The notes beneath the pieces are model-generated. The model saw nothing but the letters and a program-made list of their open reading frames with translations, had not been told where the DNA came from and did no database searches. A stretch of DNA of 64,000 bases. Source: an uncultured Gammaproteobacteria bacterium. Lineage in GTDB: Bacteria; Patescibacteriota; Microgenomatia; JALYQM01. A program made the position numbers and the translations under genes. The DNA lies in the NCBI GenBank assembly GCA_964525495.1, contig CAZGHS010000001.1, positions 10,863 through 74,862 on the forward strand, in the 5' to 3' direction. Shown here one piece after another: positions 11,403-36,283 of the stretch. The stretch's first letter is position 1; each line of letters starts with the position of its first letter.

Positions 11403-11897
11403 TTGGAACACAATAAAGTGTTACTTGCCATACCAAAGCACTTTGATAAGATAGTGGTAATAATCATTAAAGCTGCTGAGGAGCTTATTATGTCTGAACA
11501 AGGTGAAGCACCACAACCAATTCTCGAAGAAGTAAAAATAGATCAATCATCTCATCCAAATAGTTTATTGGTTGATGTAAAAGGCGAACAAGCCCAAGTA
11601 GAGGATTTTATCAAGCAAACTTTATACAAAATTAGAGCGCGCGAGATACCTCCCACTAACGATACGGAATCTACAAATCTGCGACTTGATATCGATGACT
11701 TATTTGAGCAACAACGAGAAGATATCGACAAATATTTCAAAGGAGGGCAACCTTACAATCCCTACATCGGTACAAATTGGGAAATACGTGCATATGTACG
11801 AAGAGAGCGTCAACAGCCTGGAATTTATCACCTTAATTTCTACGATAATGCCAGTATGCAGCGAGTAAAATCTGACGGTCTTGAAATAGCGGAATAA
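11403..11897 (+). CDS. Acidic hypothetical protein (island cargo)
   Basis: 164-aa ORF rich in Glu/Asp with no motif. The start may be the internal Met (MSEQGE). Confidence 0.35.
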   Translation: MEHNKVLLAIPKHFDKIVVIIIKAAEELIMSEQGEAPQPILEEVKIDQSSHPNSLLVDVKGEQAQVEDFIKQTLYKIRAREIPPTNDTESTNLRLDIDDLFEQQREDIDKYFKGGQPYNPYIGTNWEIRAYVRRERQQPGIYHLNFYDNASMQRVKSDGLEIAE

Positions 11898-11950
11898 CCA
11901 ACTTTATTTCAAGCATATTATTCTCGCAAATAGTCTGTTAAAATCCAGCC

Positions 11951-13057: not shown

Positions 13058-13589
13058 CGAAACAAAGACTACTCAATACCAAACAAATCCAACCGAGAAA
13101 CAAATCAAGACGACAAATAATATACTTGCAGGAGAACAAAGCGTTGGGCAAGCCATGAGAAACGCAGGATATTCTACGACATCTTCATTGAACCCAGGTA
13201 AGAATTTCATGGAAGCTAAGGGAACAAAAACTTACTTATCCCGTCTTGATCTAAAATCAAGAATTAAATTCAATATGTGTACTGTAGATCGCGCATTAGA
13301 AGTATTCATGGAGGCTTTAGAGGCGAAAAAGTACATACCGTTTCGTGTTGTTAATGAAGGCAACAAAGTAATTTATAAAACTCAATCAGTTCCCGATCAC
13401 GACATAAGAATACGTGCCGCTGATAAACTATTAAAGCTACATAGCGTGGAGAACCTACAACCTGAAAAAGAATCATCACACTCACAGACACTAACACAGG
13501 AAGAGATTGACGATTTTAATAAGAAATTCCTTCGATTTATAGAAAGTGGAGAATTTAGTTCTACAGTAATTAGCAAATCACAATCCTAA
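13047..13589 (+). CDS. Terminase-small-subunit-like HTH protein (track ORF starts at 12993; internal Met start assumed)
   Basis: NILAGEQSVGQAMRNAGYSTTSS resembles the AGYS-containing N-terminal HTH of phage small terminase (Terminase_2-like). The call is weak and rests on a short motif. Confidence 0.3.
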   Translation: MLSDETKTTQYQTNPTEKQIKTTNNILAGEQSVGQAMRNAGYSTTSSLNPGKNFMEAKGTKTYLSRLDLKSRIKFNMCTVDRALEVFMEALEAKKYIPFRVVNEGNKVIYKTQSVPDHDIRIRAADKLLKLHSVENLQPEKESSHSQTLTQEEIDDFNKKFLRFIESGEFSSTVISKSQS

Positions 13590-13612
13590 TTCAACAATGA
13601 TAAAATCCCTGT

Positions 13613-14350
13613 ATGCTGGGAGTTGAAGTACCTAATGGTATTGAAGAATGGACTTATGATAAAGTAAAATACTTTCTTCTTTTTCATACCGCAGGTACAC
13701 ACCTGTTGGTTAAGAATCTTCGAGAGAAATATAAATATAACTCTAAAAAAAGAACAATTTTTGAGCGAAAATTGCGTTCATCAATTCATAATCAAAACTT
13801 AGAAAGAGAATTGGAAGACGTAGTAAATGAACTGGGAATTGGCCGTGCTTTTGTTGATTATTCGCTATTAAATGACACGATTGACGAAGAGTTTCTTGAT
13901 TCCGTTTCTCTCCCCATCTTCATCGCTACTTCGGTAAGTCATTTAACAAGCGGTTTTTTTATAAAAGTAGACCAAAAAACGACACTTACCACAGTGCAGG
14001 AATCATTCAACGAGATACAAAAGTTAATGATTCACTACAACAAATTCATTCAAAAAAAGAAGAACTACTACGCTCCTGCCAAAAAGGAAGCTCCACTAAA
14101 TAATCTATCAAAGTCTGTTGAGATAGCCTTACTTATAGAGAAAGAGTTAATTCAAGGAAAATCTGTAACAGAAAGCATTGGTACAGTAGCCGACATGATC
14201 TACCCTGTAGAAAACGAAACAGAATTACAAAAAAAGACGACAGCAGAAAAAGTTCAAGAACGCTACTACGAAGTACTTCGTTATTATCACATTCCTACTC
14301 CACTGCAATTCAAAAAACTTGCGTCTAAATACGCTCCTTCACGGAAGTAA
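13613..14350 (+). CDS. Hypothetical protein (island cargo)
   Basis: 245-aa ORF with no recognisable motif. Followed by hairpins at 14391-14440. Confidence 0.4.
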   Translation: MLGVEVPNGIEEWTYDKVKYFLLFHTAGTHLLVKNLREKYKYNSKKRTIFERKLRSSIHNQNLERELEDVVNELGIGRAFVDYSLLNDTIDEEFLDSVSLPIFIATSVSHLTSGFFIKVDQKTTLTTVQESFNEIQKLMIHYNKFIQKKKNYYAPAKKEAPLNNLSKSVEIALLIEKELIQGKSVTESIGTVADMIYPVENETELQKKTTAEKVQERYYEVLRYYHIPTPLQFKKLASKYAPSRK

Positions 14351-14456
14351 AAAAATTCCAGATAAAGCTACTCTATACATACTCTCAATGCTGGGAAGTT
14401 GAGCGTATAAGAAGACCCTTATTCCCAGCAGTAAGGGTCTTTCTATATGAGCAACA

Positions 14457-14618
14457 ATGAGTAAGCCTAAAAGAAGAACCAGTCCAAATAAGCAAGAAGC
14501 GCCACAAAATGCAGCATTAGAAGACAAAATGCGTGCATTTGCTAATCAAATTATTGATGTGATTTTAGATGACTACAAGCAAGGAAAAATGAAATATAAT
14601 AAGCTCAAAGGAAAGTAA
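14457..14618 (+). CDS. Unannotated 53-aa basic ORF immediately upstream of the serine recombinase (candidate excisionase/RDF or regulator)
   Basis: ATG at 14457 to TAA at 14616-14618 encodes MSKPKRRTSPNKQEAPQNAALEDKMRAFANQIIDVILDDYKQGKMKYNKLKGK. The stop is 3 nt before the recombinase ATG. It is below the 60-aa cutoff of the track. Confidence 0.3.
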   Translation: MSKPKRRTSPNKQEAPQNAALEDKMRAFANQIIDVILDDYKQGKMKYNKLKGK

Positions 14619-14620
14619 CT

Positions 14621-16339
14621 ATGCTGGAAAAAGCCGTTGCGGCAATGCGTGTCTCATCAACAAAACAAGGTCAAACAGGAGATAGCCCAGAAAGACAAAA
14701 GGAGCGCATCCTACACTACTCGCGCAAACATGGATATGAAATAGCGAAATTCTTTGAATTGTGGGAATCAGCATCAGGAGAGAATCAACCATTACAAAAA
14801 GTAATTGATTATTGTAAGAATCCTGACAATAAAATTAAAGCGATCTTAATTAACTCCATAGACCGATTTACACGCGGCGGATCATTCTTATATGACTCTT
14901 TGCGTTCACAGCTCACAAAATATGGGATAAAGTTAGTTGATACATACGATGTGATCGGGAATGAAAAAGTAAACACTTTAGAGCAATGGGGTGTAAGTTA
15001 TCCAAAATGGTCAGAATTTAGCCCTTCGAGAAAAAATGAAATACTTGCTGCCGAAGATGCAAAAGATGAAATGCGAACTATGCTCACTCGAATGATTGGA
15101 GCTGAAATAGATTATGTAAGGAAAGGCTATCGAGTAAGAGCTGCCCCACCTGGATATATGAACACTAAGGCAGATACAGAGCATGGAATACGATATATTT
15201 TAACTCCTCACCCCAAAGAGTCCGAATGGTTCTACAAAATATTTGAGCTTCGTGCTATGGGTAATTTCTCCGATGATGAAATCGTAGACGAAGTAAACGC
15301 ATTAGGGTTTAGAACCCGCCAGCGCCGCATACGCGACCCGCAAAACAATCAAAGAATCATTGGATACACGGAAGGCAAACCCCTAACAGTCAAAGACCTA
15401 AAACGATACATCCAAATGCCAATCTACTGTGGCGTTAATAATGAGAAATGGCTTTTAGGAGTGCCTGTTAAAGGTAAATTCCCTGGCATCGTATCAATAG
15501 ATATGTGGAATCAAGCAAATCGGGGGAAGTTTACGATTATAGAAGAAGGCGACAATGTTCAATTATATAAAGGTACGCCGCCTGAATGGCAATTAACAAA
15601 ACAAAAAGATAATCCTATTTTTCCTTATAAAAAATATGTTCTCTGTCCTATTTGCAGAAAACCGCTTCTTGGAAGTTCATCCTCAGGAAGACTAAAAAAA
15701 GGATATGGTGGATATCACTGTAGTCGTGGACACAAATACTTTAGAATACCCTTAAAGACATTCAACAAAACAATCGAAACCTTTGTACAGAAATTACATT
15801 TCAGTAAAACCTTCTCCAAAAGATTTCAAGAAATACTTCTCGAAGAGTGGCATAAGCGTAAACTACAAGTTGGAAACGACAGCATTAAGTTAGAAGAACG
15901 AGTTTTGGAGCTAAAACACACAGCTCAAAATATTACACGAAAGATTATAGACACATCATCAGATACAGTGATGAAAGCCTTAGAGGCAGAACTTGAAAAG
16001 GTAGAAAACGAAAAGGCTGCTGCGATATACATACTTAATAAAAAGGAATCGGAAGAGTTGGACATTGAAACCGTGATTGGCTATCTCAAATACTTTATGG
16101 AACACTTAGAGGATTTGGTATTAAATGACTCTAAACCCATACAACAGGCTGCCATTTTTGGACTACTTTTTGAGGAGCCACCAACCTACCAAGAACTAAA
16201 AAATGGAACACCAAGATTAAGCTGTCTATTTGAGCTAAACAAGAAGTTCAAATCTTCAAAAACTATCACTGTGGGCAACAATGGACTCGAACCATTGACC
16301 TCGGTCTTATCAGGACCGCGCTCTAACCACCTGAGCTAG
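14621..16339 (+). CDS. Large serine recombinase (resolvase/invertase-type catalytic domain plus recombinase domain plus zinc ribbon)
   Basis: N-terminal AMRVSSTKQGQTGDSPERQ has the catalytic Ser context, though SSTKQ departs from the typical S-x-x-Q spacing. 572 aa. CPICRKP...YHCSRGH zinc ribbon, then a C-terminal coiled coil. The last roughly 22 codons read antisense through tRNA-Ile. Confidence 0.8.
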   Translation: MLEKAVAAMRVSSTKQGQTGDSPERQKERILHYSRKHGYEIAKFFELWESASGENQPLQKVIDYCKNPDNKIKAILINSIDRFTRGGSFLYDSLRSQLTKYGIKLVDTYDVIGNEKVNTLEQWGVSYPKWSEFSPSRKNEILAAEDAKDEMRTMLTRMIGAEIDYVRKGYRVRAAPPGYMNTKADTEHGIRYILTPHPKESEWFYKIFELRAMGNFSDDEIVDEVNALGFRTRQRRIRDPQNNQRIIGYTEGKPLTVKDLKRYIQMPIYCGVNNEKWLLGVPVKGKFPGIVSIDMWNQANRGKFTIIEEGDNVQLYKGTPPEWQLTKQKDNPIFPYKKYVLCPICRKPLLGSSSSGRLKKGYGGYHCSRGHKYFRIPLKTFNKTIETFVQKLHFSKTFSKRFQEILLEEWHKRKLQVGNDSIKLEERVLELKHTAQNITRKIIDTSSDTVMKALEAELEKVENEKAAAIYILNKKESEELDIETVIGYLKYFMEHLEDLVLNDSKPIQQAAIFGLLFEEPPTYQELKNGTPRLSCLFELNKKFKSSKTITVGNNGLEPLTSVLSGPRSNHLS

Positions 16340-16345
16340 TCGCCC
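16272..16345 (-). tRNA. tRNA-Ile (anticodon GAT)
   Basis: The reverse complement is GGGCGACTAGCTCAGGTGGTTAGAGCGCGGTCCTGATAAGACCGAGGTCAATGGTTCGAGTCCATTGTTGCCCA. The cloverleaf is complete: acceptor 7 bp, D-stem GCTC/GAGC, anticodon stem CGGTC/GACCG with loop CTGATAA, T-arm AATGG-TTCGAGT-CCATT. Confidence 0.8.
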
Positions 16346-16398
16346 TTAGTAAACTCGCTAGATTATAATACAATCGACCTACCCTGTCGAGATAGACC

Positions 16399-17958
16399 CT
16401 ACCTGACAAAAAACTTCCACCAAGCCTTCCGCGGCTGTACGGAAGTATGCGCCAACTCCCCGTATCCCAAACTCGCAGCATATTCCTCTTCGGTTTGAGG
16501 TGGAATATAGCGTGCCAGTATCTCCCCATCCTCTTCCTCAAGTATCAATTGTCCAGGGTTCAATAGCCCACAATGATGTGCGCCTCCAGCTCCCCCAAGC
16601 ATCTTCTGGTAGGCTCCCACACACGCAAATACCACGAGCTGATCATCAGCATCAGGCAGGACTACAAATTTCTCCTCAGCATTTTTTGAGGGATATCTCC
16701 CGTCGGAGTCACACGTCAGATCTCCCAGCACATATCGAGATGATGTCTCGTTACCATTATTACCAGCCAATACAGGAAATTTCTTTTTCGTAATAAACAT
16801 ATCGGGTAGCTCTGCCATCAAACCACCATCCACGATAGCCCATCGTAAATCACCTTCATTGTCACTCACAGAATTATGCTTACGCTGCAAAACCCGATGC
16901 ACGAGGAATCCAGATTCATCAGTCAAAAAGCTCCCAAACTCAAATACCACAATGGGCGCCTCACAACCATACTCTACTGCCATCCGATTAATACCACTCA
17001 ACAAACGCTGTAGATACACATCATAGTCATACCCGGAAGCGAGCGGAGGAATCCCCCCACCCACGTTCAGATACTGCAGACTCGGATATTGTTTCTTCAA
17101 TTCAAAATATTTTTCAGCACCATACAACAAAGACATGACCAATTCATCGATCGGCACAACTTCAGCTGCAGACACCATCATATGCAACATTTTCAGCTGC
17201 AAATTTTCCGCCTTATCCACTACCCGAGCCACTTCACTTATCTCATCCCACGACATACCATGTCGCGACACACCTCGAGCCAGATGCTCATCATCATGAA
17301 CAATGCCAAACTTCATCCTCAAACCCACATCCATCGTGCCGTTATCTATCTGCTCCGCAAAATATTCTACTTCACCAGCATCCAAGATCGGCATAATATG
17401 AAAGCCAAGTTTAAAAAGCTTCACTATATATTCAGCGTACAAATAAGGCAAAGGGACAGTCGCCTGACCATCATTCACAAAAGTAATTCCAGTACTGGCA
17501 TTGTCCTGATCCGATACCTGAGAGAGAACAGGAAATTTAAATCCATTACAGATAATTGGAAGGCCATAACCTATCAGTCCTTTTTGGTGCAGCTGAAGAA
17601 TATGTACCAGATCCTGAGCAGAGCTTGTCTCAGCAAGCCACCCTTCCCTATATGCATTCAATACATAAGACAAAGCCATATTAGCTTTAGACGCATAAAA
17701 CAACGCAAAATCACCGGTATATTCAACATCTTTAGCAATCTCGCGAATCTTTTCCCGCCAATACACCGCCCGTTGCTTCATAATGCCCATATCGTGGATC
17801 TCAAGCGGAGTACCATATTTTGCAACCGCGTCCTTCACCCGCAACTTATTTATCCACAGATCACCGTGCTCATCGTATCTCAGATAATCTCGCAGATGGC
17901 TGCCAGACAAAAAGTTCTGAATTTCAGACACATAGGATTGAGATGGAGAGAGTTTCAT
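16399..17958 (-). CDS. PLP-dependent decarboxylase of the Orn/DAP/Arg decarboxylase (alanine-racemase fold) family
   Basis: KYGTPLEIHD then FYASKANMA (the YAxKAN PLP-lysine motif) and a Gly-rich region. 519 aa. Confidence 0.55.
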   Translation of the reverse strand: MKLSPSQSYVSEIQNFLSGSHLRDYLRYDEHGDLWINKLRVKDAVAKYGTPLEIHDMGIMKQRAVYWREKIREIAKDVEYTGDFALFYASKANMALSYVLNAYREGWLAETSSAQDLVHILQLHQKGLIGYGLPIICNGFKFPVLSQVSDQDNASTGITFVNDGQATVPLPYLYAEYIVKLFKLGFHIMPILDAGEVEYFAEQIDNGTMDVGLRMKFGIVHDDEHLARGVSRHGMSWDEISEVARVVDKAENLQLKMLHMMVSAAEVVPIDELVMSLLYGAEKYFELKKQYPSLQYLNVGGGIPPLASGYDYDVYLQRLLSGINRMAVEYGCEAPIVVFEFGSFLTDESGFLVHRVLQRKHNSVSDNEGDLRWAIVDGGLMAELPDMFITKKKFPVLAGNNGNETSSRYVLGDLTCDSDGRYPSKNAEEKFVVLPDADDQLVVFACVGAYQKMLGGAGGAHHCGLLNPGQLILEEEDGEILARYIPPQTEEEYAASLGYGELAHTSVQPRKAWWKFFVR

Positions 17959-18072
17959 AAATTAGAGCTCAATAAGTTCACAATATAACAATAAACTATT
18001 AAATCATTTTTCTACAATATGCATCTACAAAATCTATTGCGATAATTAAAAAAACAACATACTCTTAAAGAG

Positions 18073-19248
18073 ATGGTAAAAAACAAAGAGATCGACCCTA
18101 CTGTCTATTTACTTGTTATTGCGTTTACAATAATACTCAGTATTGCCGTAATTGCAATGTCTAAGTCAGATGTTCTATCAATACTAAAAAACAGCGTCTT
18201 CCCACCTCCATCACCGAGCCCCATCGCAATTATCGATACAGATACTACCTATCCTCTCGAACTCCGAGTACTAGGAATCGGATTAAATCCCAGCCAAAGC
18301 GGCAAAGATATAGCTACCACATATTTCTCCGATCGGATGAATAACTGGAGCGCAAGCTATACCGAAGACTATATTTTTGACACCACCGCAGAATCACTCA
18401 GAAAAGTCACACATAACACTATCAACCCAAGTATTATTAAGAAAATAGAGATCGACGAATTTCCTACATATAAAGAAGGATATTCCTTCACCGTAGCCAA
18501 CTACGATCAATGCGTTTTTGGCCAACCAGGCTTTTCCGCTTCACTCTGCGAAAACAAGAAAAAACAGTTCGATACCATCACCTGGCTCAAAACAAACCGA
18601 ATATGTGAACAGGCTAATGAAACCAACGCTGATCAGATCTGGTTAATTGCTCCACCATATATCACGACCTACGAAAGCTTCATGATCGGCCCTGACACCA
18701 CTTACCCAGTCAATGGAGCAGAATTCATAATGGAAGAATGCAACAAGAGCTATCTCGTAATAACAGGAACATACGAACGCCCAGAACCAATGCTTCATGT
18801 ACTTGGTCACATTGTCGAAGCAACTATGGCACACATCACCAAAGAATGGACGAGCGGTGATCGATACAAACACTGGGTATATTTCTCAGCAGTCACAAGA
18901 TACCAAACTCCATACAGCGGCGCTCTGAATACATTACAATGCGGCAATGCTCATTTTCCAGCCAACGCTTCCAAAGCATACGACTACTCCAACAAAAAAG
19001 TCATGAATGTAAACTGCAGTGACTGGGAAAACTTTCCAAACTATACTTATGAAGAGCAATCAATCGACTGTTCTGTGTGGAACTGCACCGAGATTGGCTG
19101 GCACGAATACTGGTTAAGCAGCTTACCTCATCGTCCTGGTTCATCTGGCATAAATTGGAAGGGCGGCGCACTCAAACCGTTCAAAAACAACTGGTGGTAT
19201 TACATCCTCTACCCTGAAAACACAATCGCAGTAGTCAAGCAAACATAA
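18073..19248 (+). CDS. Secreted/membrane-anchored Cys- and Trp-rich hypothetical protein
   Basis: N-terminal TM helix, then a roughly 350-aa domain with many Cys, Trp and N-x-S/T sites. No catalytic motif identified. Confidence 0.4.
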   Translation: MVKNKEIDPTVYLLVIAFTIILSIAVIAMSKSDVLSILKNSVFPPPSPSPIAIIDTDTTYPLELRVLGIGLNPSQSGKDIATTYFSDRMNNWSASYTEDYIFDTTAESLRKVTHNTINPSIIKKIEIDEFPTYKEGYSFTVANYDQCVFGQPGFSASLCENKKKQFDTITWLKTNRICEQANETNADQIWLIAPPYITTYESFMIGPDTTYPVNGAEFIMEECNKSYLVITGTYERPEPMLHVLGHIVEATMAHITKEWTSGDRYKHWVYFSAVTRYQTPYSGALNTLQCGNAHFPANASKAYDYSNKKVMNVNCSDWENFPNYTYEEQSIDCSVWNCTEIGWHEYWLSSLPHRPGSSGINWKGGALKPFKNNWWYYILYPENTIAVVKQT

Positions 19249-19288
19249 ATATTCCCTGATTCCGCTATTCAAGATATAATACACGCTT

Positions 19289-20320
19289 ATGAGTCCAGAC
19301 AAACTCCAACGCATTAGCGTCATAGTAAATGAGCATTCAGGCAGTGGAAATAATAATGAACTTATCAGACAAGCTACAGACGGCATGCCAAACGTCAGGC
19401 AGCACGATTTCCATACAGAATTCAAACCAAATAAAGACAACGTCAGAGCCCAAATATATTTAGAAAGCGACGTAATTCTCTCCGGATCAGGAGACGGTAC
19501 CTGCGGATACATCTGGACACAATCACTAAATAGGCAGCAAGAGCCGCGAGGTGAAATCGCCTACGGTCTATTACCTAACGGTGGAGAAAACGTACTTGCC
19601 CACTTCACAACAGGCAGACGCAGATATGACAGAAACAAAGTAAAAAACATAAGACAAATAATTCAAGAAATTAGTCAAGGAAATTACACAACCAAACAAA
19701 TAGAACCGGCGATTATCACAACTGATCAAAACGATAAAGCAGATATCTTCTGGCAATTTGGTGCAGGTGATGGCCAACTGATGGATATACTGCTAGGACA
19801 GGTCGAAGCATGGCGTCCTCGTGTGCAACAAAAACACTTACGCAAACTATTAGCCGGAGTTACTTCGGCAATACACCTCAACTATAGCCCACAACATCCA
19901 CTACATATTAAATTGGGGCAGACACAGTTAGAGGCATATGAAATAGCCCACGTAAGTAAGAACTTTCCGCAACTCGCTCACTGGGATATGCGAGGAACAG
20001 ACAATAGTTTCTTACTGTATGTAGCAGATCGGTATCACAAATTTCCTCGAATCCGAGGTGCTTTGGCAGCAATGGATGCAACAGCAATAAGCTTTCAAAA
20101 ACAACGACGCATGCCTATAAATCCACCATTTAAAACACTACTGTATCGAGAGTGGAACGACGCGCTCACCGTATATGCCGCTGAACGGCAAACAATTCTT
20201 ATACAAGACTCCGAAATTAAATCTGCGAATAAAGGTGAGATTGCACCGTGGAAACATGTTACATTCGATCCAGAGGCTTGCAACAAATCGCTTCGTATTC
20301 TGCAGATGAACCAAACTTAA
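19289..20320 (+). CDS. Diacylglycerol-kinase-catalytic-domain (DAGK_cat, YegS/BmrU-like) lipid kinase
   Basis: ISVIVNEHSGSGNNNE (N-terminal nucleotide-binding strand) and VILSGSGDGTCGY (GGDGT-like motif). 343 aa. Confidence 0.5.
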   Translation: MSPDKLQRISVIVNEHSGSGNNNELIRQATDGMPNVRQHDFHTEFKPNKDNVRAQIYLESDVILSGSGDGTCGYIWTQSLNRQQEPRGEIAYGLLPNGGENVLAHFTTGRRRYDRNKVKNIRQIIQEISQGNYTTKQIEPAIITTDQNDKADIFWQFGAGDGQLMDILLGQVEAWRPRVQQKHLRKLLAGVTSAIHLNYSPQHPLHIKLGQTQLEAYEIAHVSKNFPQLAHWDMRGTDNSFLLYVADRYHKFPRIRGALAAMDATAISFQKQRRMPINPPFKTLLYREWNDALTVYAAERQTILIQDSEIKSANKGEIAPWKHVTFDPEACNKSLRILQMNQT

Positions 20321-26169: not shown

Positions 26170-27105
26170 ATGAGTATGTCAATTCTAGAAAAAGCCACCG
26201 ATGCAAGACAAACAGAGCTTTGGTCGGTATTCATGCAAAAACTCGGCTGGACCGTAGAAGAGATCGATGGCTACTACGTATTCATCAGAAAAATCCCCTT
26301 ATTCAATCATGCACTTATCAAAATCCAACACAGCCGCGGAGTTCCACCACTCGATAAAATCGAAGAAATTGCCAAACGAAATAATGCCCTCTTTGTACTC
26401 ATAGAACCAACCTCTATTGGCTACACTGAAGACCTTTACAAAAAAAACGGCTATATGCGCTCCAAAATGAAAACTGCATATTCAGCGAACATTCTCATCG
26501 ACTTAGTAAAAACCGATCAAGAAATACTTGAATCATTCTCAGAAAACGCCCGTAGAAATATTAAAAAAGCTGAAAAAGCAGGCATCACCATTTCCGAAAA
26601 TTTAACAGACGACAACTCATACCAACACAAAGTAGATATGTTCTACGAACTTCACAAAATGGTCAGCGTCAAAAAAAAATTCTATATCCACCCCTACAGC
26701 GAATTCACTGCTAAAGCCGAAGCTTTTAAAGACAACGGCTTCTTTCTCTTTGCATTTCAAAAGGGCGAACAAAAACCCGTCGGAGCGATCTGGTTCGGGG
26801 AAAAAGACAAAACGGTATACTATATAAACACAGGCATGAACGAAGAAGGTTACGCCAAAAACGCCAATTATCTCCTACTCTGGGAAGGCATTAAAATTGC
26901 TAAACAAAAAGGATTAGAAGTACTAGATTTTGAAGGAATTTTCGACGAACGAAACAAACAAGAAAATAAAAAATGGAAAGGATTTACTGAGTTCAAAAAG
27001 AAATTCCATGGTGAAACAATCTACTACCCTCCTTCATGGATAAAAATTTATAATTTACCGTATAAAATTCTCTACATATGCGTCTCCTCGATCCTCCGAT
27101 CATAG
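26170..27105 (+). CDS. FemAB-family aminoacyl/peptidyl transferase (GNAT-like)
   Basis: C-terminal NYLLLWEGIKIAKQKGLEVLDFEGI resembles the conserved FemABX block. 311 aa. Confidence 0.5.
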   Translation: MSMSILEKATDARQTELWSVFMQKLGWTVEEIDGYYVFIRKIPLFNHALIKIQHSRGVPPLDKIEEIAKRNNALFVLIEPTSIGYTEDLYKKNGYMRSKMKTAYSANILIDLVKTDQEILESFSENARRNIKKAEKAGITISENLTDDNSYQHKVDMFYELHKMVSVKKKFYIHPYSEFTAKAEAFKDNGFFLFAFQKGEQKPVGAIWFGEKDKTVYYINTGMNEEGYAKNANYLLLWEGIKIAKQKGLEVLDFEGIFDERNKQENKKWKGFTEFKKKFHGETIYYPPSWIKIYNLPYKILYICVSSILRS

Positions 27106-27854
27106 TTGCCTATATAGTCTTCTTAGCTTTATGCATACTCTTCGTATACAAAACACGTATACCAATAGTCAAAAAGTATAAATCCGAACTAAACAAATTT
27201 ATTGACGTGCGCAAAAACAAACTTGGCGAACTATATATGACGCTCAACGGATATACACAAGGCATCGAGGTAAAAAAAGGCTTACAAAACACCGCTATAG
27301 ACAAGTCATACTGGTATTTCTGCGCTAACTCAATCACCGAATTTTGTAAAAATATTGAGAAACCTAAAGTTCTCCTCCTTGGACTCGGTGCCGGAACTGT
27401 CCCTCATATAATAAACAACGTGAATCCCAACATCGAAATGACAGTTGTCGAATACGATCCTGTAGTGATTCAAGTCTGCAAAGACTACTTTCGACTCAAT
27501 GATCTCACTAACACACATGTCATAAACGCAGACGCATTTGAGTTTGTTAAACAAATCCCAGATACACTTTACGACGCAGTACTCATAGATCTTTTTATCA
27601 GCGAAGCACCCTACCTCTCACCTCAGAGCCAAAGCTATAACTTTATCGCCGATGTAGACAAGCTCGTCAAGAAAGACGGTTGGTTTGTCTTAAATCGTCC
27701 TGCTAACGACGCATTCGCTAAAGCAGACCAGAAAAAATTCATGGAGCTTGTAAAGAAAATCTTCAAAGAATACAAAGAAAACGAAATTATTGACCCACGC
27801 AATTACTACAACTATATTATCGAGGCCAAATATTTTCAGCCCGGAATAACATAA
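27078..27854 (+). CDS. Membrane-anchored spermidine-synthase-like (PABS fold) methyltransferase-family protein
   Basis: N-terminal TM helix, then LLLGLGAGTVP...VVEYDPVVI...DAVLIDLF, which is the spermidine/spermine synthase pattern. Confidence 0.5.
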   Translation: MRLLDPPIIVAYIVFLALCILFVYKTRIPIVKKYKSELNKFIDVRKNKLGELYMTLNGYTQGIEVKKGLQNTAIDKSYWYFCANSITEFCKNIEKPKVLLLGLGAGTVPHIINNVNPNIEMTVVEYDPVVIQVCKDYFRLNDLTNTHVINADAFEFVKQIPDTLYDAVLIDLFISEAPYLSPQSQSYNFIADVDKLVKKDGWFVLNRPANDAFAKADQKKFMELVKKIFKEYKENEIIDPRNYYNYIIEAKYFQPGIT

Positions 27855-28783
27855 ATAATAGTGTGCACAATTATCGCCCAGATTATCACGGTCGTAAGAA
27901 GCGGTTTATCCGACAAAAGCATGCGCTCTGGCGACTCCCCTTCTTTCTTCTCATAAATAAGATACAAATACCGCATCACACCATAGATCACAAACGGAAT
28001 CGTTGCCATGAACCATTTCGTATCATCCACTCGAGGTGTCAAACTATAGAAAAACTGACTAAAAAACCCGTTAGGTGTGATACGCGGCTGCTGAAATGCG
28101 AAAAGCGCGTACGTCATCCAAGTAGCAGTCGCAAACATAGTAGTGTAAGCATGCAACAAAGACTCGGGATAATGACTCAGAGTCGACCTTACCTTGGCCA
28201 CAGGTGCAGATTCAGCATATCCCTGCAATAAAGTTGCCTCAGCCCGTCGTTTACCGATAGCAATGAACAGCGCAAACGCAGCCACACACATCAAAAACCA
28301 GATATTAAGATGAGTTCCAATCACCCAAATACCAGCATAAATCCGCAATAAAAATCCCGAAGCAATGGCCAAAACGTCAAGAATAATAATATTCTTCAAG
28401 TAATGCATATACGAAAATTGCAAAAGAAAATATGCAATAACCGCAAGGAAAAAGCGTTGTGACAACAAATACGAAGAAACTAAGGCAACAATAATGAAAA
28501 TCACACCAAGAATCGTTGCTAATTGAACAGATAACTGACCTGAAGCAATAGGCCGCTTCTTCTTAAAGGGATGCAGACGATCCTTAGGCGCATCCACAAT
28601 ATCATTAAAGATATAAACAGCTGACGTCGCAAGTGAAAACAAAAGAAAAGCCTGAGTAACGATCGAAAAATCAGACAAAACATACAGTCGTGCACTAAAA
28701 ATCAAACCAGCATAGATAGTGAGGTTCTTAAGCCATTGTCGTGGCCTTATTGTTTTGACGATTGCAACGAACGTCTTATCCAT
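27836..28783 (-). CDS. UbiA-family prenyltransferase, decaprenyl-phosphate phosphoribosyltransferase (DPPR synthase)-like
   Basis: FNDIVDAPKDRLHPFKKKRPIASGQLS matches the ND-x2-D-x3-DR-x-HP-x-K-x2-RPIA-x-G block of DPPR synthases. Eight or more TM helices. Confidence 0.6.
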   Translation of the reverse strand: MDKTFVAIVKTIRPRQWLKNLTIYAGLIFSARLYVLSDFSIVTQAFLLFSLATSAVYIFNDIVDAPKDRLHPFKKKRPIASGQLSVQLATILGVIFIIVALVSSYLLSQRFFLAVIAYFLLQFSYMHYLKNIIILDVLAIASGFLLRIYAGIWVIGTHLNIWFLMCVAAFALFIAIGKRRAEATLLQGYAESAPVAKVRSTLSHYPESLLHAYTTMFATATWMTYALFAFQQPRITPNGFFSQFFYSLTPRVDDTKWFMATIPFVIYGVMRYLYLIYEKKEGESPERMLLSDKPLLTTVIIWAIIVHTIIYVIPG

Positions 28784-29829
28784 AACATGCTAACAGAAAA
28801 TACGATCAGCACACCAATAAAAGCAAACAACTTACTCTGACTATTAATCTGTAATGTGAGTATACCTAATAAAGCGCATATTAGCCAATAGAAAAAAGCA
28901 ATTCTCCGCTTTGACCACCCTAGATCCAGCAGATAATGGTGCAAGTGTGTACGATCACTCTTCATGGGGTTTTTCTTATGTGCCAAACGCCGCGAGAACA
29001 CCCACAACGCATCCAGTATTGGGATAGCCAGCACAATGATCGCAATGGCAAACTTTGCACCAGACAAAATCGCAAGCACAGCAATCATAAATCCAGAAAA
29101 CGTAGAACCTCCAAATCCGGGCATTATTTTTTGAGGATACGATGAAAAAATAAGGAACCCGGCGAACGCACCCGCGGCAATAAAAGCCAGCAGAGCCGTC
29201 GGCTCAGAAAGTCGATCGTAACGCAGTGAAGCAAATCCAAGTATCGTCAAGGTAACCACAGCAATTCCTGCATTCTGCCCATCCACACCAGACGACCAAT
29301 TAACCACGTTCATCATAGATACAATCCAAAAAATCGCCACCACATCTGCCCATACCACTATCGTATGCAACCCGTCCCAGAAGTAGAGTGGGATTACCCA
29401 TTCATTCAACAAAATCACCCCACCCAAAGGATTCGTCACATAACTCACGCCAATACCAAACCCCACGACAATCAAGGCAAAAAGAAACATCAAACCCAAC
29501 CGCAATTTTGGCGAAAGATCATATTTATCATCGATCACGCCCATCACCACGATACACAGACCAGCCAAAAATATACCGGTCAGGTGTTTTACCCAATCAG
29601 TACTCTCAATAAACGAAAACTGAAATCCAAATATTAACAGACTTGCAAAAAGCGTTGCCAAATATACTGGCGCCCCTCCTGCACGAGGGATCGGCGTACT
29701 ATGCAAAATCGCGCCATGCTTTCGTTTTGGATCGTCTACAAATCCATATTTAAAAGCCAAATAAATAGTAATTTTTGTAAAAATTAGTGCGAGTAAAAAA
29801 GCTAGTGAAAATCCTAAAAAATATGCCAT
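28747..29829 (-). CDS. Polyprenyl-phosphate N-acetylhexosamine-1-phosphate transferase (WecA/MraY family)
   Basis: MMNVVNWSSGVDGQNAG resembles the N-x2-N-x2-DG-x-DGL motif. Polytopic. 360 aa. Confidence 0.6.
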   Translation of the reverse strand: MAYFLGFSLAFLLALIFTKITIYLAFKYGFVDDPKRKHGAILHSTPIPRAGGAPVYLATLFASLLIFGFQFSFIESTDWVKHLTGIFLAGLCIVVMGVIDDKYDLSPKLRLGLMFLFALIVVGFGIGVSYVTNPLGGVILLNEWVIPLYFWDGLHTIVVWADVVAIFWIVSMMNVVNWSSGVDGQNAGIAVVTLTILGFASLRYDRLSEPTALLAFIAAGAFAGFLIFSSYPQKIMPGFGGSTFSGFMIAVLAILSGAKFAIAIIVLAIPILDALWVFSRRLAHKKNPMKSDRTHLHHYLLDLGWSKRRIAFFYWLICALLGILTLQINSQSKLFAFIGVLIVFSVSMLWIRRSLQSSKQ

Positions 29830-29838: not shown

Positions 29839-30261
29839 TTAAGCGAACCACAATTTCACAGTAATCACAAGATTCATGCTATTCCAAACAGCCAAAAGGC
29901 TCATCAAAGCACATACAGAAATAGTCCCACCCAAAATACGAGCTGTCAGCGGCTCATTTTTAAAGGTAATAAGAGATAAGGCGTAATTAACAAGGAAAAA
30001 TATAGTAAGTAATCCTGGCTGAAGCCAGATGAGATTTCTCATAGCCAACTGATCCACCCCCCAAGTGCGCTGCAAAAACAACGGAATCTCTGGAGGCAGT
30101 GAAGAAAAATTTATCCAGACCAGCAAAAAATTCAATAAAATAAGCAGGAAAGCTACAATAAAACTAACATTGGATATGCGGTCATTAAACTGATAATCAG
30201 CGACCACTGGTAACAACCGAGCAGTATTTGGCTTCAATGATTTAAAAAACTGTTTCTTCAT
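29839..30261 (-). CDS. Small integral membrane protein
   Basis: 140 aa with four predicted TM helices. No motif. Confidence 0.35.
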   Translation of the reverse strand: MKKQFFKSLKPNTARLLPVVADYQFNDRISNVSFIVAFLLILLNFLLVWINFSSLPPEIPLFLQRTWGVDQLAMRNLIWLQPGLLTIFFLVNYALSLITFKNEPLTARILGGTISVCALMSLLAVWNSMNLVITVKLWFA

Positions 30262-30274: not shown

Positions 30275-32080
30275 CTAACTTCCCACTCGCAAAATATCCA
30301 AAAACGCTTCTTGGGGAATACTTACTCTACCTATCTCTTTCATCTTCGCCTTACCCTTTTTCTGCTTATCCAAGAGCTTATTCTTACGTGTCACGTCACC
30401 TCCGTACAATTTTGCAATCACATCTTTACGAAAAGGAGCAATAGTTTCCCGTGCAATTATTTTCCCCCCGATTGCCGCCTGTAGCGCAATCGCAAAGTTT
30501 TGACGAGGTAACACATCTTTTAACTTTTCAACAATATTTCGTCCGAAACTCTCCGCCTTAGATTTAACCAACACGTACGACAGTGCATCAATAATCTCCC
30601 CCGCCACCATAATATCCATTCTGACAACCTCAACCTCTTTAAAATCAGTCAGTTCATAATCCATTGACGCATACCCCGACGTTGAAGATTTTAGTTGATC
30701 ATAGAAATTCACAACCAATTCAGATAATGGAATATCGTACAAAAGCTTTACCTGACTTGCTAAATATGTTTGATCAACCAACACTCCCCGATGCTCTTGG
30801 CACAACTGCATCACAGCTCCTACATAGTGTTGTGGACTGATCAAAGTTACGCGAGTCCACGGCTCAAGCACCAACGCTTGTGAAGGAATCTCTGAAGGAT
30901 TTTTAATTTCCTCATCATTAAGAATATAACCAACACTTGGAGTCGTCACAATCACATCAATACCAAACTCACGCTGTAAACGATCGTGTGTAATTTCAGC
31001 ATGAAGTAATCCTAAAAAGCCGCAACGAAAACCATGACCCAAAGCCTTCGAGGATTCCTCAGTGAAATACAACGAAGAATCATTTAACTTTAACTTATAC
31101 AACGCATCTTTAAGATCAGCAAAATCGTCAGAACTAATTGGGTACAAACCGGTAAACACCATTGGTTTCATCTCTTTGTACCCTGCTAAAGCGCCTACTT
31201 GAGATTTCCAATCTAACGATCGGAGATTAAGACTAGAACCGTCCTTTAGCTGCGATCCAATAATAGTGTCGCCTACTCGCCCCAAACCTACGTCCTTTAA
31301 ACCAGTCGCAAGATATCCTACCTCACCCGCACGTATTTCGGTACTTTTAGTCATCCCTGGTGTAAAATACCCCAACTCCAAAACATCAACACCTACTTCG
31401 GTATTAAAAAATCGCACAAAGTCTCGATCGTTGAATACGCCATCAAACACCTTAATCGAGCAAACCACACCTTTATATGAATCATAAAAAGAATCAAAAA
31501 TGAGAGCTCGAGAATACGACACGTTGCTATCGCGAGGTGCAGGCACCCGCTCAATAATCGCTTTTAAAATATCCTCAATGCCAATACCAGTTTTTCCTGA
31601 CGCCTCGATCATCTCTGATTCTAAAAATCCAAATGAGTCTGCAAGTTCTTTAGCTACTCTTTCTGGTTCAGCAGCGGGCAAATCAACTTTATTTAAAACT
31701 GGAATAATCGTCAGCTTATTTTCCAATGCCTGAGTTAGGTGTGATAATGTTTGTGCTTGCACACCCTGTGTTGCATCAACCAAAAGCAAAGCACCTTCGC
31801 ACGAAACAAGTGAGCGTGAAACTTCATACGAAAAATCTACATGTCCAGGAGTATCGATCAAATTCAGAATATATTCTTCACCTTTGTATGTATATTTCAT
31901 TCGCACCGGTGTAAGCTTCACGGTAATACCACGCTCGCGCTCAATATCCATTGAATCCAAAAGCTGCTCCTGCATGTCTCGCTTTTGCACAGTACCAGTG
32001 TACTCAAGCAAACGATCAGCTAAAGTAGATTTTCCGTGATCAATATGGGCAATAATACAAAAATTACGAATATGAGCCAT
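30275..32080 (-). CDS. lepA: Elongation factor 4 (LepA)
   Basis: N-terminus IRNFCIIAHIDHGKSTLADRLL (G1 motif), DTPGHVDF, 601 aa, and the C-terminal LepA-specific region. Confidence 0.9.
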   Translation of the reverse strand: MAHIRNFCIIAHIDHGKSTLADRLLEYTGTVQKRDMQEQLLDSMDIERERGITVKLTPVRMKYTYKGEEYILNLIDTPGHVDFSYEVSRSLVSCEGALLLVDATQGVQAQTLSHLTQALENKLTIIPVLNKVDLPAAEPERVAKELADSFGFLESEMIEASGKTGIGIEDILKAIIERVPAPRDSNVSYSRALIFDSFYDSYKGVVCSIKVFDGVFNDRDFVRFFNTEVGVDVLELGYFTPGMTKSTEIRAGEVGYLATGLKDVGLGRVGDTIIGSQLKDGSSLNLRSLDWKSQVGALAGYKEMKPMVFTGLYPISSDDFADLKDALYKLKLNDSSLYFTEESSKALGHGFRCGFLGLLHAEITHDRLQREFGIDVIVTTPSVGYILNDEEIKNPSEIPSQALVLEPWTRVTLISPQHYVGAVMQLCQEHRGVLVDQTYLASQVKLLYDIPLSELVVNFYDQLKSSTSGYASMDYELTDFKEVEVVRMDIMVAGEIIDALSYVLVKSKAESFGRNIVEKLKDVLPRQNFAIALQAAIGGKIIARETIAPFRKDVIAKLYGGDVTRKNKLLDKQKKGKAKMKEIGRVSIPQEAFLDILRVGS

Positions 32081-33735
32081 TATTTAGCCTCCTCAACCGT
32101 CTCAGTCAGCTTCACTTCATCACTCTTCATCTGGAATCCCTTAAGCCGTCCCTGAATATATGCAATCACCATTAACGCTTCTCTTACCTTGAGCAGGCGA
32201 GTCAAAAGAAGATACATTATCATACCACACCCACCCGCTATTCCCGTAAGAACAAGCAAATTAACAGTTCGTGTAGTGTCAAACACCACTTGGTCTAGAC
32301 CAATCATCACGCGATGCAAAATAACAGCCATGACAAACGCTGCACCCATCATACGCAAAAAAGGAGAGAAGAACTCTTTTGACCACAACCCACCTGTCCG
32401 CCTATCGAGCAAGAAAAACATAAGTATTGCTGAAAAACTACCACCCACCGTGCTAGACAACCCCAAAACCCACACATCCAAATGCAACACAAACACACCA
32501 ATTATGCTAATAAAAATATCCAAAGCCAATCCTACAAGCACAATTTTTAATGGAGTAGACGTATCGTGAATTGCATAATAAGCACGCATAAGCATCACTG
32601 AAATCGCCTCAGCAACGAGTCCCACCGCAAGCCATGCAACAGTCATACCAGTTAACACCGTCGCATCCCAGTTAAATTGATCTGCTCCAAAAGCCAAACG
32701 CACAACAGGAATACGCAAAACAACCAAAATAGCGGCTGCAGGAAAAATCATAAAAATAACCTGATGAATCGACGTAACAAGCGTTTTAACAAATCCCTGC
32801 TTGTCTCCTTGCGCATCAAGCTTAGCCAACACAGGCAGAACAGCCTGAGCCATAGTCGCAACAAAAAGTCCAACCGGAACTAGATAAAGTTGTTGTGCCA
32901 GGGTCAACATAGTGACACTTCCTACAGAAATAATTGAAGCCAAAGATAAGTTGAAAGTAGTTCGAAGTTGCTCTCCTGCGATCGCAATAGTACGGGGAAT
33001 CATTAAAGTCCACACTTCCCTCACGCCTTTTTGAAAAAAATCACTTGACCACCGCAAACGAAATCCCACCTTATACGCCAAAGGCAGCTGAACAATCACA
33101 TAAAACAACGCACCTAGGAAAACACCATACACCACACCATCAATTCCCAACACAGGTGTTAAGAATATAATCCCGATGATAATACCCACGTTATAAAGCA
33201 CCCCGCTCAGAGCAGGAATCAGAAAATGCTTAAATGTCTGTAAAACGCTCGTAAGCAGTCCGCCTATCACAAAGAGAAATTGAGCACCAAAAAGCATACG
33301 AGAAAGCGTAATCATCTCTACACGCTGATGATCTTCAAACCCGGGAGCAATAACAGTCGAAATTGCCGGAGCAAAAATAATCGCAACGAGTGAAACAGCT
33401 CCGAACAAAACCATGCCCAGAGAAAGCAGTCCTTCTGCAAAATGAAACGCCTTATCAGTGCCTTCAGACTCCTTTATACGCGAAAAAACCGGGATAAACG
33501 CGACGGACAGGGCACCAAAAATCAGCAAGTTGTAGACCATATCAGGCAAACGAAAGGCTGCAAAATAGACTGCCGCTTCCTCAGGGGTGAAGTATTGAGC
33601 TAGCAAACGAGACCGCAGTAGCCCCAAAATACGCGAGATAGCCACTGTCGCCATAAGCACAGTAGCAGCACCCAAAATACTACTTTGGCGCGACAAAAAG
33701 ATGTTTTTCCCGTTTTTAAGAATTCTGTTTACCAT
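32080..33735 (-). CDS. murJ: Lipid II flippase MurJ (MviN)
   Basis: 551 aa with 14 TM helices. The N-terminus has the typical MurJ pattern SSILGAATVLMATVAISRILGLLRSRLLAQYF. Confidence 0.8.
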   Translation of the reverse strand: MVNRILKNGKNIFLSRQSSILGAATVLMATVAISRILGLLRSRLLAQYFTPEEAAVYFAAFRLPDMVYNLLIFGALSVAFIPVFSRIKESEGTDKAFHFAEGLLSLGMVLFGAVSLVAIIFAPAISTVIAPGFEDHQRVEMITLSRMLFGAQFLFVIGGLLTSVLQTFKHFLIPALSGVLYNVGIIIGIIFLTPVLGIDGVVYGVFLGALFYVIVQLPLAYKVGFRLRWSSDFFQKGVREVWTLMIPRTIAIAGEQLRTTFNLSLASIISVGSVTMLTLAQQLYLVPVGLFVATMAQAVLPVLAKLDAQGDKQGFVKTLVTSIHQVIFMIFPAAAILVVLRIPVVRLAFGADQFNWDATVLTGMTVAWLAVGLVAEAISVMLMRAYYAIHDTSTPLKIVLVGLALDIFISIIGVFVLHLDVWVLGLSSTVGGSFSAILMFFLLDRRTGGLWSKEFFSPFLRMMGAAFVMAVILHRVMIGLDQVVFDTTRTVNLLVLTGIAGGCGMIMYLLLTRLLKVREALMVIAYIQGRLKGFQMKSDEVKLTETVEEAK

Positions 33736-34969: not shown

Positions 34970-36283
34970 TTAATTCGTCTTTGGTGTCGCAGAACTACTT
35001 GCTTCATGAGGTGGTTGTTCGCTCACAGTAATCCATTGTTTTATTGTGCTCTGCACGACACTCCAATCACTCGCACCAGCTTTAGGAACAAGCACATACG
35101 CTCCGTTATACACTGACCTATCCACAGGCAGTATCAGCAAGGCATCTACACCTTCCGCTGAAATCGAATGACTTTGAATTGTAGCGTCCTTCGATTTCTG
35201 GAAAAGTTTAAAAAACTCACCATATTCTACAGGTTCAATATCTGTTTCAATACTGCTGCCGAAGTTATTAAGCAACGGCCCTACCTTAGCAGGATTAAGA
35301 AGCGTTTCGCTGGATAATAATTTCTCTTTTATACCTGAAATAACTTTCTCTTGTCGACGCGAGCGTGCAAAGTCACTTCCTTCACCGTTTGTACCATGTC
35401 GTGAGCGGACAAATTTCAAGGCTGTTTTCCCATCAAGAGTCAACGGACCAGTTTTAAATGCTAATGTCTCATAACGACAAGGATACGGTTCTACATTCTC
35501 GGGAATAGGACTATTATTCGCATCAACCAATTTCTTTACAACAATCTCGCCGCTCTCGCTCGCAATTTTCTCTTCGATCTCTTTGTTTCCACACATATCT
35601 CGCTCACGACCAGATATTGGATACATGCCATCCGTGAATGCAGTATCCACAGTTATGTCTATCCCACCAAGCAAATCAATTGCTCTCTCAAAGCCACCAA
35701 AATCTACACGCAACGCATAGTGAATCGGCATACCAGTCATTCGTCCCAATTCTTCCTTAATCTGATTCAGGCCTTGTTTATCTCCCTTTTCAAAACCATA
35801 CGCATATACTGCATTCAGCTTTGAACGTGTACTTGGCACCCAAATATCTCGAGGAAACGGGATCAATACAGCATTACCATTTTTAATATTGATACTCGCA
35901 ACAATCATCGTATCAGTTAGGTACGGACCATCATGTCCTTGTCCACCAATACCAAGCAAAGCAATATTCACACGTCCATCATCATTTTTGACCTGAGGAT
36001 CTTTATTTGCGACAAATGAAACAACAGCATTAGGCGCTTTAGCCAAATCTCCGGCGGATACTTTTAATCCCGAAAGAAACGAGTAAGCATAATAACCAAC
36101 AACACCAACCAGGAATATAACCGTAGCAGTAACAATCAACCACCACTTAGGACGAATAGCCATAACCCCACTCGCAGCACGATGCTGCTTCTGAAGCTGT
36201 GCAGCTTCTTTTTTATGATCGACATTAACGTAACGCATGAAGCATCTCCATGAAACTCGAAGGATCGTTTGAAGCAGATCCAA
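34970..36283 (-). CDS. LytR-CpsA-Psr (LCP) family cell-envelope phosphotransferase
   Basis: TM anchor, then VNIALLGIGGQGHDGPYLTDTMIVASI...LIPFPRDIWV, the LCP core. The start is likely an internal Met because it overlaps tpiA. Confidence 0.7.
   Translation of the reverse strand: MDLLQTILRVSWRCFMRYVNVDHKKEAAQLQKQHRAASGVMAIRPKWWLIVTATVIFLVGVVGYYAYSFLSGLKVSAGDLAKAPNAVVSFVANKDPQVKNDDGRVNIALLGIGGQGHDGPYLTDTMIVASINIKNGNAVLIPFPRDIWVPSTRSKLNAVYAYGFEKGDKQGLNQIKEELGRMTGMPIHYALRVDFGGFERAIDLLGGIDITVDTAFTDGMYPISGRERDMCGNKEIEEKIASESGEIVVKKLVDANNSPIPENVEPYPCRYETLAFKTGPLTLDGKTALKFVRSRHGTNGEGSDFARSRRQEKVISGIKEKLLSSETLLNPAKVGPLLNNFGSSIETDIEPVEYGEFFKLFQKSKDATIQSHSISAEGVDALLILPVDRSVYNGAYVLVPKAGASDWSVVQSTIKQWITVSEQPPHEASSSATPKTN

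Follow-up and report, generated by a model that had tools for sequence, protein, structure and literature searches.

What does an enzyme related to the phosphoribosyltransferase of mycobacterial arabinan synthesis do in a bacterium of the Candidate Phyla Radiation (CPR)? This question is raised by a 64,000-nucleotide stretch of contig CAZGHS010000001.1 (assembly GCA_964525495.1, positions 10,863 to 74,862 of the forward strand; hereafter, the window), deposited as DNA of an uncultured Gammaproteobacteria bacterium and placed by GTDB in the Patescibacteriota (Microgenomatia; JALYQM01). An original prediction, made from the letters of the window alone, had noted a UbiA-superfamily gene overlapping a gene for a WecA-like transferase and read the pair as the start of an arabinofuranose donor pathway. 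We found that the pair belongs to a three-gene module typical of CPR/Microgenomates bacteria and that its expected product, on present evidence, would be a ribofuranose donor. The genes of the module are as follows, in window coordinates.

27836-28783, minus strand: UbiA-superfamily polyprenyl-phosphate 5-phosphoribosyltransferase, 315 aa, of the decaprenyl- or polyprenyl-phosphate phosphoribosyltransferase type (DPPRS/PPPRS), assigned by NCBIfam models, PDB entry 8j8j, residues, and a neighbor-joining (NJ) tree

28747-29829, minus strand: phosphoglycosyltransferase, 360 aa, of the WecA/TagO-type N-acetylhexosamine-1-phosphate transferases acting on polyprenyl phosphate (PNPT; GT4 family), assigned by PF00953, with an atypical active site (S180, F239)

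29839-30261, minus strand: small membrane protein with three transmembrane helices (3-TM), 140 aa, a conserved partner of the PNPT with no known family, recognized by locus comparison and an AlphaFold2 (AF2) model

Both open reading frames (ORFs) of the predicted pair were present as described. They share 37 nt, read in different frames, with the ATG of the UbiA gene at 28783 and the TAA of the GT4 gene at 28749-28747. Pfam assigned the former to UbiA (E=3.5e-19) and the latter to Glycos_transf_4 (PF00953; E=3.8e-24), so that both predicted family memberships are far beyond chance. The quoted ND-x2-D-x3-DR-x-HP-x-K-x2-RPIA block was found as an exact motif in the UbiA translation (N60-D61-IV-D64-APK-D68-R69-L-H71-P72-F-K74-KK-R77-P78-I79-A80) and pairs residue for residue with N73...A93 of Mycobacterium tuberculosis Rv3806c. 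Two features went beyond the original prediction, namely, the 140-aa membrane protein as a third conserved partner and an atypical active site in the PNPT.

The UbiA protein was assigned to the DPPRS clade, as predicted, and not to the quinone or heme prenyltransferases. Its three top NCBIfam models were all decaprenyl-phosphate phosphoribosyltransferase equivalogs (E=4.9e-68/2.6e-63 for the phosphoribosyltransferase models); it passed the cutoff of NF008978 (213.9 bits versus 207), fell just below that of NF008977 (229.7 bits versus 234), and was below that of NF008976 (156.8 bits versus 474). The fourth model was the HAD-fused UbiA family PRK08238 (141.5 bits), and the models for quinone, heme, chlorophyll, and geranylgeranylglyceryl phosphate prenyltransferases, including UbiA, MenA, CyoE, and ChlG, gave at most 48 bits each. 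The best solved structure was that of Rv3806c (PDB 8j8j; E=2.4e-36; 34.8% identity across 230 aa), and BLAST gave E=3e-41 to Rv3806c versus 0.002 or worse to Escherichia coli CyoE and UbiA. In a small NJ tree, a distance method without bootstrap support, the window protein and its CPR relatives were sister to Rv3806c and stood apart from E. coli UbiA, MenA, and CyoE. The tree thus speaks against a placement with quinone or heme enzymes, the outcome that the original prediction had named as fatal to it.

The ligand residues pointed the same way. In Rv3806c, Mg is bound by N73 and D77, ribose by N73 and Q135, the 5-phosphate by K28, Y70, and Y157, and pyrophosphate by R22, K87, R90, K143, and Y138, a phosphoribose site that is not conserved among ordinary UbiA prenyltransferases (PMC10994848). 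The Rv3806c residues R22, K28, Y70, N73, D77, K87, R90, Q135, Y138, K143, and Y157 correspond to R13, K19, Y57, N60, D64, K74, R77, Q122, Y125, K130, and F144, respectively. Ten of them are identical, and the one change, Y157 to F144, also occurs in some mycobacteria (PMC10994848). This set of residues for Mg and phosphoribosyl pyrophosphate (PRPP) is invariant or near-invariant in 79 CPR homologs. Judged from its sequence, the UbiA protein adds a new member to the DPPRS/PPPRS clade, and automated annotation had already named it so.

The pair had been thought unexpected in a reduced genome, and here our results disagree with the original prediction. Among 8,000 candidates scored, 7,228 were homologs of the UbiA protein at E<=1e-5; the nearest named ones came from Candidatus Daviesbacteria, and NCBI names some of them decaprenyl-phosphate phosphoribosyltransferase. 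A collection of species-representative genomes (one genome per species) held at least 588 stretches encoding UbiA relatives, the best 80 of which were mostly titled Daviesbacteria, Woesebacteria, Curtissbacteria, Beckwithbacteria, Collierbacteria, Microgenomates, or Patescibacteria or carried uninformative labels. We called ORFs (our own longest-ORF calls) and clustered them in 85 related loci plus the window, and counted the following genes over the 79 loci with a called UbiA gene, giving positions relative to that gene.

Position -1, same strand and almost always overlapping: GT4 gene, in 76 of 79 loci

Position -2: small 3-TM membrane protein gene, in 69 of 79 loci

Position -3 or -4: membrane GT2 glycosyltransferase of about 590 aa with a QxxRW motif (Pfam), in 62 of 79 loci

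Directly upstream of the small protein gene: PMT_2-type GT-C glycosyltransferase (Pfam), in 30 of 79 loci

The 3-TM protein, the PNPT, and the UbiA-type phosphoribosyltransferase thus form a module that is typical of CPR/Microgenomates bacteria. In one related locus (L093), a PMT_2 GT-C lay directly upstream with the module order unchanged, and in the lineage of the window (the window and loci L001, L002, L003, and L006), MurJ-LepA stands where others have the GT2 and GT-C genes. The CPR locus looks less like a modification cassette that varies between serotypes than like a locus of core housekeeping genes. We found no paper joining the Candidate Phyla Radiation with decaprenyl, and the translationally coupled PNPT-PPPRS pair with its small partner, its CPR spread, and its atypical PNPT site are not described in the literature that we searched. 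Many of the module-bearing metagenome-assembled genomes among loci L008 to L078 were titled "uncultured Gammaproteobacteria" or "uncultured Pseudomonadales" (binchicken assemblies); their gene content and similarity to Daviesbacteria suggest that these titles are placeholder or wrong labels.

The small protein had no Pfam or NCBIfam match. It has a conserved loop, LPPxhPLF...WGxxQL, and its AF2 model, built from an alignment of 13 sequences, showed three helices (pLDDT 72) and found no significant PDB match with Foldseek. However, it was fused N-terminally to the GT4 protein in 19 of 150 GT4 cluster representatives; fusions include L091 (6001-7449), L092 (6001-7425), and P0144 plus 18 other representatives, from WWE3-labelled and other Patescibacteria genomes. 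UbiA still comes directly after the fusion gene in both L091 and L092; a Wzy_C (O-antigen ligase-like) gene is next in the former and lies about 1 kb further downstream in the latter. Because such fusions exist and are then still paired with UbiA, the small protein is best read as a detachable PNPT module, not a separate flippase. No GT4-UbiA fusions were seen among the 150 representatives.

The GT4 protein agreed at the family level with the WecA-type neighbor that had been predicted: in addition to the PF00953 match, its family profile scored 98.6 bits on E. coli WecA versus 54 bits on MraY. However, the WecA model TIGR02380 gave it 88.7 bits, far under the cutoff of 326.05. Its D100/D101 correspond to WecA D90/D91 (DDxxD), D183 to D159, and H295/H297/H298 to H279/H281/H282 (HxHH), and the DDxxD, N177, D183, D273, and HxHH residues were invariant. 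Two positions deviate. The position of WecA D156, whose equivalent is essential in Coxiella WecA (PMC5843353), holds S180, and that of WecA D217, which equals the Mg site of MraY (D267 in EcMraY and D265 in AaMraY, where it binds Mg [PMC5039524]), holds F239. Neither is peculiar to the window. Over 83 UbiA-paired GT4 homologs, the D156 position was K, S, T, or A in all 83 and the Mg-site position was F or Y in 76, with D in only seven loci, the informatively titled ones of which were Curtissbacteria. The two positions covaried over the 150 GT4 cluster representatives. S180 alone is not disqualifying, since the first Asp is also missing from human DPAGT1, which has alanine at that position and is a proven GlcNAc-1-P transferase; among the enzymes compared, only F239 lacked precedent. 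The GT4 protein is WecA-like in fold and probably in chemistry, not a demonstrated WecA.

Whether the module leads to arabinofuranose depends on later enzymes. By default, a PPPRS and a GT-C add ribofuranose; arabinofuranose needs DprE1/E2 and xylofuranose an epimerase of the short-chain dehydrogenase/reductase (SDR) type, and DprE1/E2 homologs were present in every arabinofuranose-containing system examined by Kelly et al. (PMC11127046). A search of the genome for DprE1/DprE2-like genes had been proposed along with the original prediction, and we ran it on the window and the 85 related loci (1.49 Mb) by tblastn, with M. tuberculosis DprE1 and DprE2 probes validated against PDB entries (1058 and 546 bits, full length). 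It returned no DprE1 and one generic SDR match. Pfam annotation of the likely genes of the window found no DprE1/E2, PAP2, or HAD phosphatase. No Emb/Aft-type arabinosyltransferases were found in these loci and no Arabinose_trans or AftA domains were seen; the GT-Cs found, that at 53348-54997 in the window and ORF families 12 and 23 in the relatives, were all PMT_2/ArnT-like. A membrane PAP2 (PAP2_3) was linked in only 1 of 85 loci (L005), and the 315-aa UbiA protein has neither a fused phosphatase domain nor a linked phosphatase. Two other phosphatase candidates were rejected: a secreted PAP2/vanadium-haloperoxidase-like protein near the L001 module, which is missing from the window and appears to be a soluble enzyme that is exported, and TatD, which is often upstream in relatives and was set aside as probably part of the MetRS-TatD pair, a common housekeeping synteny.

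The arabinofuranose part of the original prediction therefore found no support in the regions searched. Since DprE1/DprE2 and Emb/Aft enzymes were missing and PAP2 was linked only once, we take the default product to be a ribofuranose lipid. On present evidence, the expected donor would be polyprenyl-P-ribofuranose, and arabinofuranose would be possible only with epimerases encoded outside the regions seen.

Further genes around the module could contribute to or merely accompany such a pathway.

26170-27105, converging on the module: FemAB-like aminoacyl transferase

27078-27854, converging on the module: membrane-anchored spermidine-synthase-like methyltransferase, its 3' end overlapping the UbiA 3' end by 19 nt

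30275-32080, minus strand: LepA (EF4) GTPase, operon context and not part of the module (translation; GTP_EFTU/EFG_C/LepA_C at the same position in L001 and L003)

32080-33735, minus strand: MurJ, a MOP-superfamily flippase of lipid-linked glycans (TIGR01695, 268.5 bits versus a cutoff of 235.55; Pfam MurJ, E=6.3e-70)

34970-36283, minus strand: candidate LytR-CpsA-Psr (LCP) ligase of glycopolymers to peptidoglycan (TIGR00350, 80.8 bits versus a cutoff of 62.3)

53348-54997, plus strand: GT-C fold glycosyltransferase of PMT_2 type, 549 aa (Pfam PMT_2, E=1.2e-9)

The minus-strand block is tightly spaced, with MurJ first, followed by LepA, the 140-aa membrane protein, the GT4 gene, and the UbiA gene last, and no promoter or terminator signal inside it rose convincingly above background. 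LepA was absent from the corresponding position in Daviesbacteria-type loci, and MurJ accompanied the module in no lineage but that of the window; a role as flippase for the module is possible but unproven. The two converging genes are both syntenic in that lineage. The GT-C lies 25 kb from the module and is a weak candidate for the user of a polyprenyl-phosphate sugar donor: hhalign against the module-linked GT-C family of the relatives gave 60% probability, profiles of the module-linked GT2 and GT-C families matched none of the window ORFs, and the GT-C candidates of the window had no PDB sequence match. It belongs to a separate glycan cluster (49276-63650) that also encodes a CapA/PGA_cap protein, two GT4-type (GT-B) glycosyltransferases, three methyltransferases, a NodU-like carbamoyltransferase, an acyltransferase, a second GT-C-like membrane protein without a family (54963-56504), and an overlapping PRK07208-family FAD oxidoreductase (58221-59681) and RmlD-like SDR (59639-60514). 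This FAD/SDR pair beside the GT-Cs could be a sugar-modifying oxidase/reductase pair.

Compared with known systems, the module combines familiar enzymes in an arrangement of its own. The UbiA protein shares with Rv3806c (8J8J/8J8K) the UbiA fold, the extended NDxxDxxxDRxHPxKxxRPIA block, and the ligands for Mg, ribose, 5-phosphate, and pyrophosphate save Y157. However, its host belongs to the CPR, its carrier is probably C55 whereas the mycobacterial one is C50, and its gene is clustered neither with a PAP2 phosphatase (Rv3807c in mycobacteria) nor with Emb/Aft genes, nor did we detect DprE1/DprE2 in its vicinity. The idea that the adjacency of the two genes mirrors the mycobacterial arrangement did not stand, since mycobacterial wecA (Rv1302) and ubiA (Rv3806c) are unlinked by locus tags, whereas the PNPT and UbiA genes are translationally coupled here. 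A functional link between WecA and UbiA nevertheless has a precedent in Corynebacterium glutamicum, where WecA binds UbiA in a two-hybrid assay, which was read as coordinated use of carrier lipid (PMC4213368). By analogy with that WecA-WbbL-UbiA complex, the two enzymes of the module may draw on one polyprenyl-phosphate pool; the coupling there is between the proteins of unlinked genes, whereas here it consists of overlapping genes.

A further parallel comes from the three-component systems of pentofuranose glycosylation such as ORF15-ORF14-ORF12 of Citrobacter youngae O1/O2 (Kelly et al., PNAS 2024). C. youngae ORF15 makes polyprenyl-P-Ribf for a GT-C, and no epimerase is needed (PMC11127046). 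Both systems have a PPPRS, with ribofuranose as the default sugar and epimerases as an option; the GT-C that uses the donor there is ArnT-like, and CPR relatives carry a PMT_2-type GT-C within the gene block. The GT136 family of ribofuranosyltransferases, which Kelly et al. founded, has been described as most similar in sequence to ArnT. They differ in that the CPR module lacks both a fused HAD phosphoribose-phosphatase domain and a neighboring MATE flippase, always has a WecA-type PNPT with the small 3-TM partner, and often has a membrane GT2. As for the PNPT itself, it has in common with E. coli WecA and Bacillus subtilis TagO the PF00953 fold, DDxxD, the N-x-x-N...G-x-D-G core, HxHH, and an N-terminal DxPxxRxxH. 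It differs in falling far under the WecA equivalog cutoff, in having S180 and F239 for D156 and D217, and in needing, or being fused to, the 3-TM module.

Taken together, the explanation that we favor, with moderate confidence, is that a pathway to a polyprenyl-phosphate ribofuranose donor is coupled to a transferase that primes a glycan, the two forming the core of an envelope-glycan module. The UbiA-family enzyme, with good support from its sequence, would load polyprenyl phosphate (probably C55) with 5-phosphoribose taken from PRPP, giving polyprenyl-P-beta-D-ribofuranose-5-P. An unlinked phosphatase would strip the 5-phosphate, and the lipid-linked ribofuranose would then be flipped over the membrane, where, judging from the linked genes of the relatives, a GT-C outside may add the pentofuranose to a surface glycan. 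The added sugar would be ribofuranose, barring an epimerase gene in another part of the genome. In parallel, the WecA-type PNPT and its small membrane partner may prime the same carrier with a sugar-1-phosphate, starting the acceptor glycan, a step that follows from family membership and is weakened by F239. More speculatively, the LCP ligase (34970-36283) could later join the glycan to peptidoglycan. The overlapping frames would couple the synthesis of the two enzymes that consume carrier lipid, perhaps as a complex, which fits the published idea that WecA-UbiA association coordinates carrier-lipid use in Corynebacterium.

Several points weigh against this explanation. The PNPT has neither the Mg-binding aspartate of MraY (F239) nor D156 of WecA, which makes ordinary HexNAc-1-P transferase activity uncertain. 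The module has no linked phosphatase that would act on the 5-phosphate, PAP2 occurring in only 1 of 85 loci, and no flippase was identified there. In the window, neither a GT-C nor a GT2 adjoins the module, and the nearest GT-C, 25 kb off, is only weakly related to the linked ones. Our view covers 64 kb of this genome, and epimerases may thus be encoded elsewhere.

Four alternatives were weighed against it. A first alternative makes the UbiA protein an aromatic or quinone/heme prenyltransferase that adjoins the PNPT by coincidence; it is suggested by the generic Pfam UbiA match and by the automatic JGI name of its homologs, "4-hydroxybenzoate polyprenyltransferase." This is already effectively refuted by the 48 bits or less of the UbiA/MenA/CyoE/ChlG models versus 214 to 230 for the phosphoribosyltransferase models, by the presence of all the phosphoribose-binding positions that prenyltransferases do not conserve (PMC10994848), by the tree, and by a GT4 adjacency kept in 76 of 79 loci. 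A mycobacterial-type arabinan, in which DprE1/DprE2-like enzymes would epimerize the dephosphorylated lipid at C2 to polyprenyl-P-arabinofuranose and arabinosyltransferases would extend the WecA primer into an arabinogalactan-like polymer, shares its first enzyme with our proposal, and a WecA-type primer enzyme and an LCP ligase candidate are present; the FAD oxidoreductase (58221-59681) and SDR (59639-60514) could in principle be a non-orthologous oxidase/reductase pair. However, that pair lies 30 kb off and belongs to families other than DprE1/E2, the 1.49 Mb searched held no DprE1 and one generic SDR, the module-linked GT-Cs are PMT_2/ArnT-like and not Emb/Aft, and all the arabinofuranose systems examined by Kelly et al. 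have DprE1/E2 homologs (PMC11127046). We consider an arabinan improbable. We think it similarly improbable that the donor serves O-glycosylation of proteins, such as type IV pilins or an S-layer protein, as in the pilin arabinosylation of Pseudomonas aeruginosa PA7, and not a wall polysaccharide. PPPRS orthologs do serve Pseudomonas pilin glycosylation (PMC11127046), PMT_2-type GT-Cs include protein glycosyltransferases, and a prepilin-type protein is encoded at 7788-8285 of the window. Yet the linked genes encode a PNPT, a membrane GT2 of processive type, Wzy_C, and PEGA/SH3 wall proteins in place of pilins, and no pilin gene adjoins the module in the window.

The remaining alternative concerns the PNPT, which may not be an ordinary HexNAc-1-P transferase at all and could instead process the UbiA product, for example, at the 5-phosphate of polyprenyl-P-ribose-5-P, or act as a non-catalytic scaffold of the phosphoribosyltransferase. 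The replacement of the Mg-site Asp by F or Y in 76 of 83 homologs and of D156 by K, S, T, or A in 83 of 83, the covariation of the two positions, the near-universal gene overlap, and the absence of 5-phosphatase linkage from the examined loci would all fit such a role. Against it, the invariant DDxxD, N177, D183, D273, and HxHH fit an active PNPT, the proven human DPAGT1 also lacks the first Asp, the Curtissbacteria members retain the Mg-site Asp though paired with UbiA, and chemistry of this kind has no known precedent. On balance, we judge it unlikely, if somewhat less so than the arabinan or protein O-glycosylation. A specific form of it is a long shot, namely, that the PNPT would put a sugar-1-phosphate on the 5-phosphate of polyprenyl-P-ribose-5-P, or otherwise process it, instead of priming free polyprenyl phosphate; it comes to mind because the enzyme has lost the Mg-site Asp and is hard-wired to a phosphoribosyltransferase without a linked 5-phosphatase. 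If this were true, a CPR-specific envelope polymer would be primed by a ribose-bridged lipid-linked intermediate not known before.

Other features of the window and its relatives were seen in passing. Two Peripla_BP_6 genes flank a large dCache-HAMP-PAS histidine kinase at 44494-49275, with no response regulator among the annotated ORFs. An integrated mobile element likely occupies 11400-16345; its large serine recombinase (14621-16339; Resolvase and Recombinase domains) ends inside or next to a tRNA-Ile (16271-16345), and the region from 10 to 16 kb has a lower GC content (0.35) and several ORFs without a family match. Over nearly the whole 64-kb window, the GC skew has strongly negative values (about -0.15 to -0.28), turning to about 0 at 12 to 16 kb; one published Microgenomates genome is reportedly noted for unusual strand composition disparity. 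In the relative L003, whose UbiA protein is 80% identical to that of the window, a carotenoid-like cluster (15779-19364) encodes a CrtD/amine-oxidase-type FAD desaturase, a second UbiA, a GT2, and Caroten_synth (PF04240), and presumably resembles bacterioruberin-type clusters. The second UbiA-family protein (289 aa) was unrelated to the phosphoribosyltransferase clade in the NJ tree, and the cluster had no equivalent among the annotated ORFs of the window.

The CPR/Patescibacteria are mostly uncultured, and almost no experimental knowledge exists of their cell envelope. A module kept over many CPR lineages predicts a lipid-linked pentofuranose donor and a surface glycan with ribofuranose or an epimer of it, and it offers a biochemical handle, with two enzymes that could be assayed in E. 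coli membranes and one sugar to seek in enrichments. It would extend the recently defined pathway of pentofuranose glycosylation to a new, hard-wired architecture, and the atypical PNPT site with its detachable 3-TM module may bear on metal and substrate binding in an enzyme family that is an antibiotic target.

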